Positions 6,772 to 61,206 of a stretch of 64,000 nt of DNA are shown piece after piece. The notes below the pieces were generated by a model, which saw only the letters and a list, made by a program, of their open reading frames with translations, was not told the origin of the DNA and did not search any database. The first letter of the stretch is position 1; each line of letters opens with the position of its first letter. Origin of the DNA: Duncaniella sp. (lineage in GTDB: Bacteria > Bacteroidota > Bacteroidia > Bacteroidales > Muribaculaceae); NCBI GenBank assembly GCA_029060405.1, contig JAIDUB010000070.1:15372-79371 (forward strand), written 5' to 3'. A program made the translations under genes and the position numbers.

Positions 6772-8802
6772 TTAAGCGAGATATTCCTTGACGAGGGCGG
6801 TGACGGCGTCGGTGGTGAAGCCGAATTTTTCGTCGAGCACCTTGTAGGGGGCCGATGCACCGAAGTGGTCGAGACCGAATACCTTGCCGTTGCGACCCAC
6901 TACGCCACGCAGTGTGGAGGGAAGACCGGCGGTGAGACCGAACACCTTCACGTCGGCGGGAATCACGCTCAGGCGGTATTCCTCGGGCTGGATGTCAAAG
7001 AGACCTATCGAGGGAACGGATACCACGCGGGCTTTCTTGCCTTCGGCGGCCAGACGCTCGGCTACCTCTACGAGGAGCGAAACTTCCGAGCCGTTGGCCA
7101 CGAGCACCACATCGGGGTTCTCGGCCTCTACCACCACGTAGCCGCCGCGCTTCATGCCGGCTTCGGCCTCGGCATAGCGGTCAGATGCTACGGCGGGCAG
7201 GTCGGGGAGATTCTGGCGCGAGAGCACGAGTGCGGTGGGGGTGTCGAAGTTTTCCATCGCCATCTTCCATGCCACGGAGGTCTCCACGGCATCGCCGGGA
7301 CGGAGCACGAGCATCGAGGGACGTCCGGCGAAATTCTTGAGTTCTTCCATGAGGCGGAGCTGTGCTTCCTGCTCCACGGGCTCGTGGGTGGGACCGTCCT
7401 CGCCCACGCGGAATGCGTCGTGAGTCCAGATGTATTTCACGGGGAGTTCCATCAGTGCAGCCATGCGCACGGCGGGTTTCATGTAGTCGCTGAACACGAA
7501 GAATGTGCCGCATGCGCCTATCACGCCGCCGTGGAGCACGATACCGTTCATGATGGCGGCCATGGTGAGTTCCGATACACCTGCGTGGAGGAATGCGCCC
7601 GAGAAATCACCGTTGGTGAACGGATGGGTTTTCTTCAGGAATGCGTCGGTCTTGTCGGAGTTGGCGAGGTCGGCCGACGATACTATCATGTTGTTGACCT
7701 TCTCGGCGAGAACTGCGAGCACGTCGGCTGAAGCCTGACGGCTGGCGATGTTGGCCTTGTGAGGTATTGCCTTGTAGTCGATTTCGGGAAGCTTGTTGGC
7801 GAGGAAGTCCTTGAGCTCGCGGGCGAGTTCGGGGTTGGCGAGTTCCCAGTCGGCCTGAGCCTTGCGGCGGGCGGCCACGATGGTGCGGAGCTCGGCGTGA
7901 CGAGCCTCGTAGAGCTTCTTGACATCATCGAAAATCACGAAAGGATTCTCGGGATCGGCGCCGAGGTTGCGCATTGTGGCGGCATAGTCGGCACCGGCTG
8001 CGCTCAGAGGCTGGCCGTGGGTGGAGCACTGACCCTCGAAATTGGAGCCGTCGGCCTTCACCACGCCGCGACCCATTACGGTGTGGCCTATGATGATGGT
8101 GGGGCGCTTGGTCTCGTGCTGAGCGGCGGTGAGAGCCTGAGCTATTTCCTCGGGGTTGGTGCCGTCGATTTCGAGCACGTTCCAGTGCCATGCGCGGTAT
8201 TTTGCGGCTACATCCTCGGTGTCAACGGCGTTGACGTAGGTTGAGAGCTGCACTTTGTTGCTGTCGTAGAACATGATGAGGTTGCTCAGTCCCAGATATC
8301 CTGCTATGCGGCCGGCACCCTGAGATATTTCCTCCTGTATACCGCCGTCGGAGATGAAGGCGTAGGTCTTGTGGCTCATCCACTCGCCGAAGCGTGCGGC
8401 GAGGAAGCGCTCGGCTATGGCGCAACCCACGGCCATGGTGTGGCCCTGACCGAGGGGGCCGGAGGTGTTTTCAACGCCGCGCTCGGGATGAAGCTCGGGG
8501 TGTCCGGGTGTGGGTGAGCCCCACTGGCGGAACTGCGAGAGTTCCTCGGTGGTATAGTGGCCGAAAAGAGCCAGCACGCTGTAGAGCATGGGCGACATGT
8601 GGCCGGGATCGAGGAAGAAGCGGTCGCGGCCGAGCCATGTGGGATCATCGGGGTCGGTCACGAGAAACTGCGAGTAGAGCACATTTACGAAGTCGGCGCC
8701 GCCCATGGCACCGCCGGGATGTCCCGATTTGGCCTTTTCGACCATCGAGGCAGCAAGAGCGCGGATATTGTCGGCCGCGCGGTTGAGAGTCTTGATATCC
8801 AT
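6772..8802 (-). CDS. tkt: transketolase
   Basis: SGHPGGAMG, DRFFLDPGH, SGPLGQG, SDGGIQE, THD..RVGEDGPTHEP. Confidence 0.97.
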   Translation of the reverse strand: MDIKTLNRAADNIRALAASMVEKAKSGHPGGAMGGADFVNVLYSQFLVTDPDDPTWLGRDRFFLDPGHMSPMLYSVLALFGHYTTEELSQFRQWGSPTPGHPELHPERGVENTSGPLGQGHTMAVGCAIAERFLAARFGEWMSHKTYAFISDGGIQEEISQGAGRIAGYLGLSNLIMFYDSNKVQLSTYVNAVDTEDVAAKYRAWHWNVLEIDGTNPEEIAQALTAAQHETKRPTIIIGHTVMGRGVVKADGSNFEGQCSTHGQPLSAAGADYAATMRNLGADPENPFVIFDDVKKLYEARHAELRTIVAARRKAQADWELANPELARELKDFLANKLPEIDYKAIPHKANIASRQASADVLAVLAEKVNNMIVSSADLANSDKTDAFLKKTHPFTNGDFSGAFLHAGVSELTMAAIMNGIVLHGGVIGACGTFFVFSDYMKPAVRMAALMELPVKYIWTHDAFRVGEDGPTHEPVEQEAQLRLMEELKNFAGRPSMLVLRPGDAVETSVAWKMAMENFDTPTALVLSRQNLPDLPAVASDRYAEAEAGMKRGGYVVVEAENPDVVLVANGSEVSLLVEVAERLAAEGKKARVVSVPSIGLFDIQPEEYRLSVIPADVKVFGLTAGLPSTLRGVVGRNGKVFGLDHFGASAPYKVLDEKFGFTTDAVTALVKEYLA

Positions 8803-37668: not shown

Positions 37669-37724
37669 AATCATGAATCATGAATCATAAATCATGAATC
37701 ATGAATCATGAATCATAAATCATT
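37669..37724. repeat. tandem heptamer repeat (AATCATD) x8
   Basis: AATCATG x2, AATCATA, AATCATG x3, AATCATA, AATCATT. Confidence 0.95.
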
Positions 37725-56774: not shown

Positions 56775-57996
56775 AGCGGGTTGAAACGGAAAGCAACAAT
56801 GATATGGATGTGCCGCGGGCTGTGGAGTAGCCGGCTATGCCGTATTCAGCCGAGGGCGCGATGTCAAACCTGTAGCGGGATGCCTGTAATCCGGCCGATG
56901 CCGATGCCGACAGGTGGCGCGACAGACGCCATATGCCCGAGGCGCGCAAGCGGGCGAGCGGGGTGGACTTGCCTGCCGACAGTGTACCGTCGGTGCCGTG
57001 GAGTGAGAAATTCATATGCCATCCTGCCGAGACCGAGGCTGCCATGCCGAACCGCTGCGACATGGGAAAGTACACATTGGCCGAGGCTGCGATACCGGCC
57101 GACGTCAACGGGCCTGAAATAAAGCGATTCTCGGGCGTCGCGAGGGCGAGGGGTAAGGATTCCACCTCGGCGGCGGCCGAGAGCGATACAGAGCGTCCTA
57201 CGGGGTGCTCGTAGCCTATGGCTGTGATGAGGGCGGGGCGGCGCTCGACATTTACACCGTGACCGCCGGTGACAGGACCTAAAGTCATGCGGAGGGTGTT
57301 GTCAAGAAACAGTGACGGGGTGAGCATGTCGGGGTATGTAAACTGAGACGCTTGGCGCTCCGTTGCCCGCCGGCCCATGATGAGATCGGCTAAATCATAT
57401 CCCGCGTGAGTGGCGAGAATCCCTATCGATGCTCCGGCGGCCACGTCGGTGGGATAGTGGTGGGCGTCGATTACACGCTCCATCGCGATTGCCGAAGCAA
57501 ATGCGTAGGCTCCCCACGTGTACCATGCCGAGTTCATACCCAGTTCGCGCTCTATCATGGCGGCTCCGGCAAATGCCCAAGCCGAATGTCCCGACGGAAA
57601 CGAGCGCGAATCAGTGCCGTTAGGCCGGGGCGAGTCGACTATATGTTTCAGTCCCCACACCAGAGCGGCATTTATCACGATGCCCGAGCCTTGCGCCACA
57701 CCCATGCGTGCCCACGATGAGCGGGTGGATACTCCCGCGGCTTTAAGAATCCACGGCAAGGCTACAGGGGCATATTGCAGCACTCCCGTGCCGCGTGAAG
57801 TGTGTTTGCCGGGGCGCGTGCTGATAAAGTCACCGTGGGGATACAGGCGACTGACCGAGTAGGCCGCGACTACACCGGCCGCCGGAACGGCGATGCCTGC
57901 CGTGGGAAACCTCGGCGTCGCAACGCTGTCGGGTGTTTCGGCGAGTGCCGTGGCCGACAGTGAAAGCAGTATGAGCAGCGAAAGCAGTCTATTCAT
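56764..57996 (-). CDS. PAP2 family phosphatase with C-terminal beta-rich (barrel-like) extension
   Basis: Signal peptide; K...RP, SFPSGHS, RV...HHY.TDV; amphipathic beta pattern ending ...TRYEF. Confidence 0.75.
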   Translation of the reverse strand: MNRLLSLLILLSLSATALAETPDSVATPRFPTAGIAVPAAGVVAAYSVSRLYPHGDFISTRPGKHTSRGTGVLQYAPVALPWILKAAGVSTRSSWARMGVAQGSGIVINAALVWGLKHIVDSPRPNGTDSRSFPSGHSAWAFAGAAMIERELGMNSAWYTWGAYAFASAIAMERVIDAHHYPTDVAAGASIGILATHAGYDLADLIMGRRATERQASQFTYPDMLTPSLFLDNTLRMTLGPVTGGHGVNVERRPALITAIGYEHPVGRSVSLSAAAEVESLPLALATPENRFISGPLTSAGIAASANVYFPMSQRFGMAASVSAGWHMNFSLHGTDGTLSAGKSTPLARLRASGIWRLSRHLSASASAGLQASRYRFDIAPSAEYGIAGYSTARGTSISLLLSVSTRYEF

Positions 57997-58910
57997 GTGC
58001 GCTGGTATTCCGAGGGTGACATGCCCGTAAGGTGCTTGAAATACTTGCCGAACGATGACTGGTTGGGAAAATTCAGCTCGTAGGCTACCTGCTGGATATT
58101 TTTTCCCGAAAACCGCAGCAGATTCTTGGCTTCGAGTATCACGAATTCATCGATAAGCTCGGCCGCCGACTTGCCGGTGGCCTTCTTGATGACGAGCGAC
58201 AGGTATTTGGGTGAGATGTAGAGCTTGGAGGCATAAAACGATACCGACCGCTGCGAGCGGTGGTGCTGATGGAGCAGGGATATGAAATCGTCGACATACG
58301 TGTTGCGGCGCGGACGTGTTTCTGCCGGAACCGTCTCGGTTTTATCGGCGTCGACTCTGTCGCGCGCCGACTGGATGAGCTGGTAACACAGCGCCGCTAT
58401 GATGCAGCGGGCTATTGAGCGCACGTAGATATCGTCGTGATTGTGGGTGGTGTTGTGGTGCAGCAGCTCGAAATAGTGGCGGAACAGAGCCGCATCCTCG
58501 GGCGAAATCTCTATGCAGGGAATGCGGTGGCCGTCTTTCGGGCGCGGAATCGTCGACAGGATATTGACATCGAGATTAATATCGCGCATGAACTCGCGCG
58601 AGATAAACAGAGTGTAGAAGTCGACCGGACCTGCCGCAACCTCCTTTATTTCAATGATCGATTCGGGATTGGTGAGCAGCAGCATGTTTTTATGGACGGT
58701 GAAGCTTTCGAGATTGACATTTAGAGAAATGTTTCCCTCATAGCACAGCATCCAGCTCAGACCGTCGATTTTTATAGGCCCGGAGGAAAAAGGAGGAAAT
58801 TCGGCCGACGAATGGAAATGGGAGAATATATAATCATCGGCAAGATGCGAGAACTCCTTGGAGTACCGCGATATGTCGACGAGTTGCGAGAGGTTGACTA
58901 TATTATTCAT
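57993..58910 (-). CDS. AraC family transcriptional regulator
   Basis: RSVSFYA.KL.ISPKYLS..IK..TG, IQQVAYELNFPNQSSFGKYFKHLTGMSP. Confidence 0.93.
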   Translation of the reverse strand: MNNIVNLSQLVDISRYSKEFSHLADDYIFSHFHSSAEFPPFSSGPIKIDGLSWMLCYEGNISLNVNLESFTVHKNMLLLTNPESIIEIKEVAAGPVDFYTLFISREFMRDINLDVNILSTIPRPKDGHRIPCIEISPEDAALFRHYFELLHHNTTHNHDDIYVRSIARCIIAALCYQLIQSARDRVDADKTETVPAETRPRRNTYVDDFISLLHQHHRSQRSVSFYASKLYISPKYLSLVIKKATGKSAAELIDEFVILEAKNLLRFSGKNIQQVAYELNFPNQSSFGKYFKHLTGMSPSEYQRT

Positions 58911-59024
58911 AATTGTCTACAAATATAGTGAAATCTCCCAATAATCTATGCTTATCCGTCCAAAAAATTCCCAAAAAGGAGAATCGCACCTCGGCTACTC
59001 ATAAACCGCCCTCTGTCAAGAAAA

Positions 59025-59058
59025 TTATTTCAGGCGGGTGTAGGAGTAGCCGAAGCGG
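59025..59058. repeat. direct repeat copy 1 (duplicate of the CoA-transferase 3' end)
   Basis: TTATTTCAGGCGGGTGTAGGAGTAGCCGAAGCGG; last 30 bp identical to 59899-59928; 33 of 34 identical to 59895-59928. Confidence 0.95.
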
Positions 59059-59116
59059 GAGTGAGCAGATTTTTATTACGGATATTTCCGGATGAAAAAT
59101 ATTGAGTTTTACTTTG

Positions 59117-59152
59117 TATGCATGCATAATAGGAAAACTTTTCTTATTTTTG
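59117..59152 (+). promoter_or_regulatory. TA promoter region with palindrome
   Basis: Palindrome TATGCATGCATA (59117-59128) and -7 element TATTTTTG (59145-59152). Confidence 0.5.
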
Positions 59153-59234
59153 CATGCGAGGTGAGGCGCGGACATGTATTTCTTATATCGGATGTCTCCC
59201 TGAAAAGCATATAGTTACTTTAATCTCCATATCT

Positions 59235-59462
59235 ATGACTCAAATTGTAGTGACTTTAGAAAATAATGCTGATGAAGTTTTTCTTCGGCGCATGATAGAA
59301 AATATGAAAGGAGTGCTGAAAACCTCTTTAACACATAATATCGAAGACAAAGGGGAAGAACGATCGCAACGGCTTGATTCTCTCCATAAGATTAAAGAAT
59401 CTATTGATCCGAGCGTTATCGATAGCTCTGATCCGCGAACCGATTACATAATGTCGAAATGA
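59235..59462 (+). CDS. putative antitoxin
   Basis: 75 aa from MTQIV at 59235; ATGA overlap with the PIN gene. Confidence 0.7.
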   Translation: MTQIVVTLENNADEVFLRRMIENMKGVLKTSLTHNIEDKGEERSQRLDSLHKIKESIDPSVIDSSDPRTDYIMSK

Positions 59463-59869
59463 AACGAGTGTTTCTTGATACGAATTTTATTATCGATTAT
59501 TTCGTAAGAGAAGATTTTGCAGGAGATGCCGAGAAGGTTATGATGTTGGGAGATACCATGAATATGGAGTTTTATATATCATATCTTACCGTTGCAAACT
59601 TCGCATATATCATGCGTAAATCTCCTGCTGATAAGTTAAAGACTTTGATAAGCAGAATATGCGAAGTTTTTACGGTTGTGAGTAATACGGAAAGTCAGAT
59701 ATTGCTTAACCTGCAGGAACAAGTATCGGATTTTGAAGATGGTCTCCAGTATCAGGCTGCTGTGTATGCCGGCTGTGATTGCATGATTACACGCAATAAA
59801 AAAGACTTTCAATTTGCCAAGATTCCAGTTTTTTCTCCGGCCGAATTCCTGACGTACTTTAAAAGATGA
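59459..59869 (+). CDS. PIN-domain (VapC-like) toxin
   Basis: VFLDTNFIIDY, DFEDGLQY..A....D..ITRNKKDF. Confidence 0.9.
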   Translation: MKRVFLDTNFIIDYFVREDFAGDAEKVMMLGDTMNMEFYISYLTVANFAYIMRKSPADKLKTLISRICEVFTVVSNTESQILLNLQEQVSDFEDGLQYQAAVYAGCDCMITRNKKDFQFAKIPVFSPAEFLTYFKR

Positions 59870-59894
59870 AAGCCAATCAGACGACGTAGAGCGG

Positions 59895-59928
59895 TTACTT
59901 CAGGCGGGTGTAGGAGTAGCCGAAGCGG
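59895..59928. repeat. direct repeat copy 2 (3' end of the CoA-transferase gene)
   Basis: TTACTTCAGGCGGGTGTAGGAGTAGCCGAAGCGG. Confidence 0.95.
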
Positions 59929-61196
59929 TCGCGGGCGGCGCGGTCGAGTGCCTCGCGGTCGGCGGGATTGGCTATCGATATCATGAGGCGGGCGCGCTCG
60001 GGGAGTGATTTCCCAAGCAGATTCACGGCGCCGTGCTCGGTGACTACGTAGTTGGTCTGGAAGCGGGTGGTAACCACGCCCGCTCCGGGTGTGAGCACGG
60101 GCTTGATTTTCCCTATTCTTTTTCCGGTGGTCGAGGTCATGGCTATGACCGAGATGCCGCCTTCGCTGCGCGAGGCGCCATAGACGAAGTCGTGCTGGCC
60201 GCCCACACCCGAGAAGATGCGCGTGCCTATCGAGTCGGCGCATATCTGACCGGTAAGGTCGATCTCAAGACATGAGTTTATGGCAGTGACGCGGGGATTG
60301 GCAGCTATGATAAATGGGTCGTTGGTATAAGCTACGTCCTTGAATATCATATCCTTGTTGTAGTCCATCAGGTCATATAGCCTGCGCGAACCGAGCGCGA
60401 GGCAAGCTACCGACTTGCCGGGATATACCTTCTTCATCGAGTTGTCGATCACGCCGTTTTCTATCAGGGGCAATACGCCGTCGGTCATCGCCTCGGTGTG
60501 AAGTCCGAGATGCTTGTGGTCGCTCAGGGCGCGTATCACGGCATTGGGTATCGCTCCCACGCCTATCTGAAGCGTGGCACCGTCGGGTATAAGGGCTGCT
60601 ACGGCATTGCCTATGGCTGTCTCCACCGGGCCCGGCTCGGGGGTGGGTACTTCCACGAGCGGGTCATTCACCTCCACCGCCGCGGTGATTTTCGACATGT
60701 GTATCACGGGATCGCCGTAGCTGAAAGGCATGTGGGGATTGAGCTGGGCTATAACCACGCGGGCGCATTCGGTAGCCGATACTGCGAGGTCGGCGCTCAC
60801 GCCGTAGCTCACGTAGCCGTCAGGGTCGGGCATCGAGCAGTTGAGAAGCACCACGTCCACAGGCCATATGCCGCTGCGGAACAGCTGCGGCACCTCACCG
60901 AGGAAGCGGGGAGTGGTAGCTCCGTAGCCTTCGGCGATCCAGCGGCGCACGTTGCCCGACACGAAGCATGTGTCGACGAGGAATGAGTCCTTGTATTCAG
61001 GCCGGCAATATGGCGCCTCACGGTCAGATACCGAGAAGCCTGAATGAAGCACCACGCCGCGAAGCTCGTCGCCGCGGCGGGTCATGGCTTCTACGAGTGT
61101 TTCAGGTATGGATGTACTTCCCTGAATATATACGTGATCACCGCTCTTTATGAGCTTTACAGCCTCGTCGGCTGTCATGATATTGTTGAAGTTCAT
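59895..61196 (-). CDS. acetyl-CoA hydrolase/transferase family (family I CoA-transferase)
   Basis: GATLQIGVGAIPNA, LGLHTE, INSCLEIDLTGQICADSIG, SGVGGQHDF..GA, VVTEHG. Confidence 0.93.
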   Translation of the reverse strand: MNFNNIMTADEAVKLIKSGDHVYIQGSTSIPETLVEAMTRRGDELRGVVLHSGFSVSDREAPYCRPEYKDSFLVDTCFVSGNVRRWIAEGYGATTPRFLGEVPQLFRSGIWPVDVVLLNCSMPDPDGYVSYGVSADLAVSATECARVVIAQLNPHMPFSYGDPVIHMSKITAAVEVNDPLVEVPTPEPGPVETAIGNAVAALIPDGATLQIGVGAIPNAVIRALSDHKHLGLHTEAMTDGVLPLIENGVIDNSMKKVYPGKSVACLALGSRRLYDLMDYNKDMIFKDVAYTNDPFIIAANPRVTAINSCLEIDLTGQICADSIGTRIFSGVGGQHDFVYGASRSEGGISVIAMTSTTGKRIGKIKPVLTPGAGVVTTRFQTNYVVTEHGAVNLLGKSLPERARLMISIANPADREALDRAARDRFGYSYTRLK

Positions 61197-61206
61197 TGCG
61201 CTGTCG

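Follow-up and report, generated by a model that had tools for sequence, protein, structure and literature searches.

Organization of the Locus

The stretch of DNA analyzed here (the window) comprises 64,000 nucleotides of contig JAIDUB010000070.1 from Duncaniella sp., a member of the Muribaculaceae. An AT-rich insert of 836 bp is located in the window between a CoA-transferase gene and the gene for an AraC-family regulator. The insert carries a toxin–antitoxin (TA) gene pair with a PIN-domain toxin and is enclosed by a direct repeat of 34 nt that is derived from the end of the CoA-transferase gene. The locus is a VapBC-like module in a repeat-bracketed islet, each of a known kind, and represents a new variant of the two. 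The coordinates of the features are presented in Table 1.

The two copies of the repeat were identified using a repeat search. The copy adjoining the body of the CoA-transferase gene (the proximal copy) is TTACTTCAGGCGGGTGTAGGAGTAGCCGAAGCGG, and the copy on the AraC side of the insert (the distal copy) is TTATTTCAGGCGGGTGTAGGAGTAGCCGAAGCGG. The copies are identical at 33 of 34 positions with a start-to-start spacing of 870 bp. The sole mismatch, AAG in the proximal copy versus AAA in the distal copy, is synonymous, since both codons encode Lys. The exact core of 30 nt occurs twice in the window and in none of 100 shuffles. The 34-nt repeat is the only nonparalogous repeat of its type in the 64 kb; the others are paralogous Mur-ligase motifs and short tandem arrays.

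A chance match is ruled out by the absence of matches in the shuffled sequences. An assembly artefact, which had been raised as an objection in a preliminary description of this DNA, is also ruled out. The longest exact stretch common to both copies is 30 nt, which is below the assembler k of 31. A Logan contig from an independent assembly of sample SRR14411253 shows no differences from positions 58000–61200 at a flat depth of 21, and the same architecture is retained in a second species from other samples (see below). The probability that the repeat is of either origin is negligible.

The insert contains two open reading frames (ORFs), both on the plus strand and overlapping at ATGA, and no further ORFs. 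The GC content is 35–40% within the insert versus 55–65% in the flanks. No recombinase was found inside the insert or among the neighboring genes (PIF1-like helicase, PAP2, AraC, CoA-transferase, and aminotransferase) in a search limited to the locus and not extended to the rest of the genome. The preliminary description, made from the sequence alone, had reported a gene-end repeat at 870 bp with one synonymous mismatch and only an AT-rich antitoxin–PIN pair, without a recombinase, between its copies. Both statements are confirmed. Neither terminal inverted repeats nor conserved ends were detected at the insert by an inverted-repeat scan, and Rfam gave no matches in the window. A putative promoter of the Bacteroidetes type is indicated by the −7 motif TATTTTTG at 59145–59152, within a stretch that is conserved between the window and a sister species. 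The −7 consensus of Bacteroides promoters is TAnnTTTG.

An inverted and diverged third copy of the gene end is found beyond the distal copy. On the CoA-transferase strand the distal repeat provides the 5′ arm and the third copy the 3′ arm of a hairpin of ~25 bp. The energy of this hairpin is −36.3 kcal/mol for the minus strand (z −5.0) versus −32.8 kcal/mol for the plus strand, where it is slightly weaker because two G–U pairs turn into mismatches. The proximal copy has no hairpin partner (z +0.4). The third copy is not present in the sister species, and the segment that contains it is unique to the window lineage. The hairpin is probably the original terminator-like stem of the CoA-transferase gene that was displaced along with the original gene end. 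As a consequence of this displacement, transcripts of the CoA-transferase gene would run antisense through the TA pair before reaching the hairpin. It follows directly from the sequence that a crossover between the two copies of the repeat would delete 870 bp and leave an intact gene of 433 aa that ends with Lys433 and the stop codon and is rejoined to its original downstream hairpin. Restoration of the gene by such a recombination had been anticipated in the preliminary description.

Table 1. Features of the TA Insert and Its Flanks in the Window
Feature	Coordinates	Strand	Evidence and remarks
AraC-family regulator gene (57993–58910) with upstream region (58911–58983); other border of the variable spot	57993–58983	−	ORF list, domain search
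Inverted, diverged third copy of the gene end	58984–59012	−	29-nt arms, 76% complementary to the distal copy
Distal repeat copy, noncoding; displaced terminal 34 nt of the CoA-transferase gene, ending AAATAA	59025–59058	−	Repeat search
Cassette 5′ noncoding region	59059–59234	+	First ~40 nt unalignable with the sister species; remainder ~92% identical
Antitoxin-like gene, 75 aa, unannotated family	59235–59462	+	Conserved directly 5′ of the PIN gene
VapC-like PIN_3 toxin gene, 136 aa	59459–59869	+	Pfam PIN_3, 5e-15
Spacer, 25 nt, between the convergent stop codons of the PIN and CoA-transferase genes	59870–59894		Hairpin-free (z +0.4)
Proximal repeat copy; functional last 34 nt of the CoA-transferase gene including the stop, ends AAGTAA	59895–59928	−	ORF list and repeat search
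Target gene, acetyl-CoA hydrolase/transferase family, 433 aa, intact; nearest butyryl-CoA:acetate CoA-transferase	59895–61196	−	Ends ...RFGYSYTRLK*

At 37669–37723, between a 308-aa ORF and the next ORF, the heptamer AATCATG forms 7.9 tandem repeats (93% matches). This tract lies 5′ of the Mur-ligase (cell-wall and division) gene cluster and is possibly prone to slippage.

Toxin and Antitoxin Genes

The PIN protein was modeled using AlphaFold2 with a pLDDT of 94. The best structural matches in the PDB are the VapC toxins 5ecd, 6sd6, and 3zvk, with a TM of ~0.7; the VapC matches come from Shigella, Salmonella, Rickettsia, and Mycobacterium. In an alignment of 35 homologues, residues D7, D91, E93, and D94 are invariant and D116 is conserved in at least 90%. 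No counterpart of the canonical second acidic residue was identified, and no match was obtained when the PIN profile was compared with the sequences in the PDB.

The 75-aa protein has no match in Pfam, NCBIfam, or PADLOC. The monomer model (pLDDT of 79) consists of three helices and has no match in the PDB. The 189 homologues that were collected are all unnamed, and their N- and C-terminal segments are strongly conserved. In 25 distinct loci the gene immediately precedes the PIN gene. The pN/pS values relative to the sister species are 0.16 and 0.18 for the antitoxin and PIN genes, respectively, and indicate purifying selection on both.

The pair is read as a VapBC-like type II TA module with a new antitoxin family, for which toxicity and neutralization are predicted. 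The resemblance to VapBC consists of two small codirectional genes with the antitoxin first and an overlap of 4 nt, and of a toxin with conserved acidic residues and a PIN fold that is nearest to the solved VapC toxins. The differences are that the toxin belongs to the PIN_3 branch, without a match in the PDB at the level of sequence, and that the antitoxin, which was assigned using its sequence and a monomer model, falls outside the described families and does not match a solved fold.

Comparison with the Sister Species

The only relative of the PIN protein with more than 75% identity (P0001, 93%) is encoded at the same locus in the sister species, which is represented by a Duncaniella-like metagenome-assembled genome and a Logan contig from another sample (L083/L084). 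The gene order, orientation, and borders are those of the window. The repeat is 43 nt in length with a spacing of 872 bp; 41 of the 43 positions are identical and both mismatches are synonymous. The nucleotide identities between the window and the sister species are 82% for PAP2, 86% for the aminotransferase, 91% for AraC, 91% for the CoA-transferase, and 92–95% for the cassette. The insertion most likely predates the split of the two Duncaniella-like species. A recent arrival had been implied by the preliminary description and is not upheld, because a species that is ~9% diverged has the same insert.

The similarity to the sister species is unevenly distributed. A patch at 59830–59903, which comprises the final ~12 codons of the PIN gene, the spacer of 25 nt, and the closing codons of the convergent CoA-transferase gene, is only ~65% identical. 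On one side it is bordered by ~120 nt of uninterrupted identity and on the other by sequence of 95% identity. The spacer itself is ~48% identical to the spacer of L083, as counted on the alignment. The 73 nt upstream of the AraC gene (58911–58983) are 100% identical to L083, versus 91% for the AraC gene, and the next 41 nt are unalignable. This perfect identity suggests either a strong constraint, such as a promoter or operator, or a recent recombination tract.

The last codon of the repeat is specific to the lineage. Both copies in the window end with ...CTGAA(A/G)TAA (Lys), and both copies in L083 end with ...CTGTATTAA (Tyr). The distal copies of the window and L083 differ at 3 of 34 positions though they are noncoding. 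Neutral sites, for which the third positions of conserved codons and the four-fold sites of the flanking genes were used as the reference, differ at a frequency of 0.24–0.29 (P = 0.005–0.02). The sequences that adjoin the distal copy cannot be aligned with L083; they comprise, on its native side, 41 nt (versus 127 nt in L083) and, on the other side, the initial ~40 nt of the cassette. No repeated element was found in these junction segments, which are unique to each lineage. Past 34 nt the distal copy of the window falls abruptly to ~50% identity with the gene; in L083 the identity runs nine bases further.

These comparisons show the distal copy to be undergoing homogenization against the functional copy, with erosion at its edge, the alternative being that each lineage formed it anew. 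In both cases recombination between the two repeats has taken place during the history of these species. Because the distal copy tracks the functional copy, including the last codon, the repeats would still be recombining by gene conversion.

Relatives without the Cassette

One genome per species was scanned for the orthologous CoA-transferase gene. The 80 loci obtained (74–95% protein identity) all belong to Muribaculaceae or related Bacteroidales. A PIN or antitoxin gene adjoins the CoA-transferase gene in none of these 80 relatives, and a second copy of the gene's own end, with up to 6 mismatches and within 4 kb, was likewise found in none. TA-free relatives that carry both repeats would have spoken against an inserted cassette, as the preliminary description had pointed out; the gene end is single in 80 of 80. 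Together with the two-gene content of the insert, this result supports the earlier description of the locus as a minimal inserted TA cassette.

The gene end of one relative, L003, is identical to the distal copy of the window at 34 of 34 positions (AAATAA), which fits with the distal copy being the original end of the gene. L003 is also the only TA-free relative with an AraC gene downstream of the CoA-transferase gene. The junction between these two genes (L003:5304–8220) contains an insert of 2.8 kb for a protein of 785 aa with BspA-type LRR and caspase domains (Peptidase_C14, EACC1-associated type). The brackets of this insert are diverged direct repeats of 73 nt with a GC-rich hairpin in them; a partial third copy is located at 7875–7903. 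Because L003 holds a caspase insert where the window holds a TA pair, the CoA-transferase/AraC junction is a variable spot with different cargo among related species.

A contig of 195 nt from run X6 (another sample of the same study) has a single mismatch to 59006–59093, beyond which it passes into AT-rich sequence that is unrelated (AAGTAAGTTTCAAGAATTAGTTTATATCAA...). A 30-mer from the unrelated part is absent from the window, from the 139 loci collected, and from viral contigs. The X6 contig may stem from a different cargo inserted at this spot or from another replicon that has these 88 nt.

Full coverage of the window species was reached in one sample from a single study, for which the assembled contigs were examined. 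No contig that skips the cassette (an empty site) or that shows a circle was found among the assembled contigs of any run. The preliminary description had also suggested a search for larger elements at the same site in relatives and for the repeat elsewhere. No larger element that carries the TA pair or the repeat was found, relatives of the PIN protein with more than 75% identity occur solely at the type of locus seen in the window, and L003 has the unlike caspase insert. The 30-mer core occurs nowhere in the window beyond its two copies, and a 22-mer of the repeat has no matches in viral contigs.

Related Cassettes and Their Repeats

Further loci with relatives of the PIN protein were collected from metagenome contigs and by exact-protein look-ups. 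Direct repeats with a spacing of 300–6000 bp and a minimum length of 28 nt (20–24 nt for the later loci) were sought in all of these; the first 121 loci amount to 856 kb. In the loci searched, such repeats were found only around inserted cassettes, apart from one paralogous motif. This motif, in L053/L069, was rejected as a cassette bracket since it lies inside methylmalonyl-CoA mutase genes. Most of the PIN loci have no repeat, and the bracket is thus a recurrent footprint and not a rule. No repeats were found at the next-closest cassettes (antitoxin 77–80% identical), which are located beside DUF1573 genes. At one cassette of this type (L140:2086–2720, antitoxin 80% identical) the PIN gene is broken and a fragment of 70 aa is left; here, the toxin gene has decayed while the antitoxin gene is intact.

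The repeats of the window lineage, of 34 and 43 nt, are spaced at 870 and 872 bp, respectively. The repeat of L092 is 46 nt in length, including a hairpin, with a spacing of 898 bp. In L093 a repeat of ~135 nt, which consists of the last 42 nt of a gene, the terminator hairpin, and 30 more nt, is found with a spacing of 864 bp. The repeat of L112 is at least 87 nt in length, is derived from the 5′ part of the coding sequence of a TetQ/EF-G-like GTPase gene, and has a spacing of 965 bp. This locus (L112:509–1597) carries a different VapBC-type pair, with a PIN protein that is 30% identical and an unrelated antitoxin candidate of 74 aa. The first copy of the L112 repeat is a truncated ORF of 67 aa, the contig ends within the second copy, and the four mismatches between the copies are all synonymous. 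The L122 type is a unit of ~2.2 kb that contains a 340-aa gene and a TA pair with a spacing of ~2170–2200 bp. The spacing for the caspase islet of L003 is 2834 bp. In L131/L137 the end of a Na/Ca-exchanger gene is duplicated over 54 nt around a DUF3800 cassette, and the spacing is 1065 bp.

The spacing is 864–965 bp wherever a TA pair alone is enclosed. The duplicated sequences at the different loci are mutually unrelated and variable in length, and each is the sequence of a local gene. The cassettes are homologous in their coding regions only. Over all brackets, 10 of the 14 differences between copies in coding parts are synonymous, versus ~40% expected under free decay (P ~0.02; hand count). 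This excess points to two functional alleles or to continued homogenization.

The DUF3800 cassette (PADLOC PDC-M04A) was found at the 3′ end of the Na/Ca-exchanger gene at L131:584–1702 and L137:1–1109, directly upstream of another PIN TA pair, so that two cassettes stand in tandem. The gene end is single, ...ILHA*, in an empty allele from other samples (L130:1560–1800). The filled allele has a distal copy that resembles the empty allele (...ILHA*) and a diverged proximal copy (...ILQA*, with further synonymous changes); the additional differences reach ~30 nt upstream into the gene. The proximal copy is therefore a foreign allele. The insert arrived with its own gene end, and the duplication did not arise by copying of the target at insertion.

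Origin of the Cassette

The interpretation that is favored for the window, with a probability of about 0.55, is that a TA module of foreign, AT-rich origin was put into the 3′ end of the CoA-transferase gene by homology-anchored insertion. The incoming DNA would have carried its own copy of the last 34–43 nt, or more, of an orthologous gene. Entry would have occurred by a single (Campbell-type) crossover of a circularized fragment or through homologous recombination on one side and an illegitimate joint on the other. The second route, with the homologous exchange upstream in the gene and the illegitimate joint inside the gene end, would give the same product. The gene would have kept a complete end, which is now the proximal copy (AAGTAA), and the original end, the distal copy (AAATAA), would have been pushed 870 bp away while still joined to its hairpin partner and the promoter region of the AraC gene. 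No dedicated integrase or att site would take part, as a consequence of which sister cassettes would be bracketed by different gene ends of differing lengths. The two repeats would go on exchanging sequence by gene conversion, and precise removal of the cassette, with restoration of the gene and its hairpin, would result from a crossover between them. The survival of the cassette in both lineages would be explained most simply by counterselection of its loss through a stable toxin, in line with general knowledge of type II modules. A penalty on loss had likewise been supposed in the preliminary description; it gains indirect support from the signs of exchange between the repeats together with the persistence of the cassette in both lineages. 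Homology-anchored insertion is favored over a dedicated att site because the repeats are host-derived, vary in length with each event, and end where the homology ends, because the proximal copy is of the donor type, and because there are no element-encoded functions. The typing of the alleles as donor or resident is clear for the DUF3800 pair and is based on a single position in the window (AAG versus AAA, the latter as in L003).

Several observations weigh against homology-anchored insertion followed by vertical descent. A homology of 34–43 nt is short for a RecA-dependent crossover. Random illegitimate joints would leave more donor DNA, and the four TA-only brackets are suspiciously uniform; this uniform content could be the result of selection, with all but the addictive pair lost, or of an unrecognized mechanism. 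The empty site of the exact locus was not found, the nearest TA-free relative (L003) having the different 2.8-kb insert there, and no donor with a TA pair beside the CoA-transferase gene was found among the 80 species. The cassette also appears less diverged than its flanks. The third positions of conserved codons differ between the window and the sister species at 19 of 197 sites in the TA genes versus 170 of 710 in the AraC and CoA-transferase genes (Fisher P = 4e-6), and the corresponding numbers for four-fold sites are 12 of 74 and 111 of 379 in the flanking genes (P = 0.02). The PIN gene contains a perfect run of at least 111 nt, or ~120 nt as read off the alignment (P ~0.005). This low silent divergence could fit a later exchange between lineages better than simple vertical descent, and base composition may explain part of it. 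The contrast is weakened when the G/C-ending four-fold sites of the flanks (0.21) are compared with the value for the TA genes (0.16). Both species are present in samples from the same study.

An exchange of this kind is the core of a second interpretation, in which the cassette is, or recently was, mobile as a circle composed of the TA pair and one copy of the repeat, with separate entry into the two lineages or exchange between them after the split by short-homology integration into the gene end of each host. Such mobility is in accord with a divergence at silent sites that is roughly twofold lower in the TA genes than in the flanks, with the perfect run in the PIN gene, and with the occurrence of both species in the samples of one study. 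Also in accord are the last codon that the copies of each lineage have in common, the inner border of the repeat that differs between the species (34 versus 43 nt), and the wholly different DNA on the native side of the distal copy (41 versus 127 nt). However, the orientation and both outer borders are alike in the two species, and the 3′ end of the PIN gene and the spacer, which would travel along with the circle, are the most diverged parts (~65% and ~48%, respectively). With the silent-site contrast weaker on the G/C-ending sites and no contig for a circle or an empty site in any run, recent mobility as a circle is considered doubtful.

In a further interpretation, which takes up the att-like reading of the preliminary description, the repeats are attL and attR of an integrase-dependent element. 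The cassette would then be either a CIME-like islet mobilized by an integrase encoded elsewhere or the last remnant of a larger element that lost its other genes and kept the addictive TA pair. The stop codon is indeed the precise end point of the duplication in both species, a feature also of elements that restore the 3′ end of the gene they target, and the insert is of foreign, AT-rich character. TA pairs are, moreover, common cargo of integrative elements. This interpretation is nevertheless unlikely. The insert is without a recombinase, no larger element with the TA pair or the repeat was found, and the viral contigs gave no matches. At least four other loci with unrelated brackets of differing length would each need another integrase. 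The DUF3800 pair fits a homology-driven insertion. The TA-only content and the spacing of 864–965 bp would be improbable outcomes of independent random internal deletions, and the length of the repeat differs between the sister species. The remaining interpretation is that a transposase-like or staggered-cut insertion duplicated the target site de novo. It would account for direct repeats of host sequence on both sides of the insert and for their variable length among loci, but is very improbable given the absence of terminal inverted repeats or conserved ends and the restriction of cassette homology to the coding regions. To our knowledge, known transposases make duplications that are far shorter than 34–135 nt. 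The proximal copy of the DUF3800 locus differs from the empty site by an amino acid change and was thus brought in, and the differences between copies are enriched for synonymous changes; neither fits a duplication made at the target.

Comparison with Known Systems

CIMEs are att-flanked derivatives of integrative elements that lack a recombinase. The cassette resembles CIMEs and the integrative elements that regenerate the 3′ end of a gene in that the repeat comes from the end of the target gene, the target is intact, the cargo is foreign, and no recombinase is found inside. It differs from them in that there is no common att core among the related cassettes, the length of the repeat is variable, and no cognate integrase or parent element was found. 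The TA cassettes of Vibrio superintegrons are also minimal, promoter-bearing TA pairs, which stabilize their neighborhood; at the locus in the window there is no attC-type site (the R′/R″ cores are lacking), no integron integrase, and no array. An integron gene cassette was rejected for the window, since there is no attC, there are no GTTRRRY/RYYYAAC cores at the borders and no array, and the repeats are coding sequence of the target. The minimal mobile elements of Neisseria are exchanged by a double crossover in the flanks and leave no duplication. They share with the present locus the alternative cargo between the same conserved genes (a TA pair in the window, a caspase-like gene in L003), but the window has a duplicated gene end.

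In conjugation experiments with Escherichia coli, DNA with one homologous segment was mostly integrated by a single crossover after circularization, with the formation of duplications of 109–950 bp (PMC3240628). As in the window, foreign DNA is flanked in these experiments by a duplicated homologous segment of variable length without functions encoded by the element (PMC3240628); the duplications are 34–135 bp here, and the event is a natural one in Bacteroidales. The H47 island of E. coli is likewise small and without a recombinase, and it is flanked by imperfect direct repeats through which it excises by means of host functions (PMC5426353). The island differs in its size of 13 kb, in its long composite repeats, and in that its excision was shown by PCR (PMC5426353), whereas the cassette of the window measures 0.84 kb and is known from sequence.

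Biological Implications

The spread and persistence of chromosomal TA pairs without mobility genes is a long-standing question. The locus described here and at least four sister loci provide a testable footprint for it, namely, a TA-only insert in a variable, host-derived duplication of a gene end with copies that show signs of continued exchange. The principal points of this analysis are that brackets of unrelated sequence recur at sister cassettes and that the two copies give evidence of ongoing exchange. The CoA-transferase/AraC junction is in addition marked as a variable spot that holds different defense-like cargo in related gut Muribaculaceae.

As a tentative proposal, for which the odds are rated as low, the solitary VapBC-like cassettes of the Muribaculaceae, and perhaps further defense-like cassettes of one gene such as that with DUF3800, could form a class of recombinase-free microelements. 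Such a cassette would loop out via the duplicated end of a host gene and reenter a related genome at the same gene end by a short-homology single crossover, with the toxin penalizing its loss. In that case the duplicated gene end would act as an attachment site that is portable and derived from the host. Should loop-out and reentry indeed proceed through the repeats in this manner, host recombination and addiction would suffice for a two-gene cassette that is mobile and yet stable.

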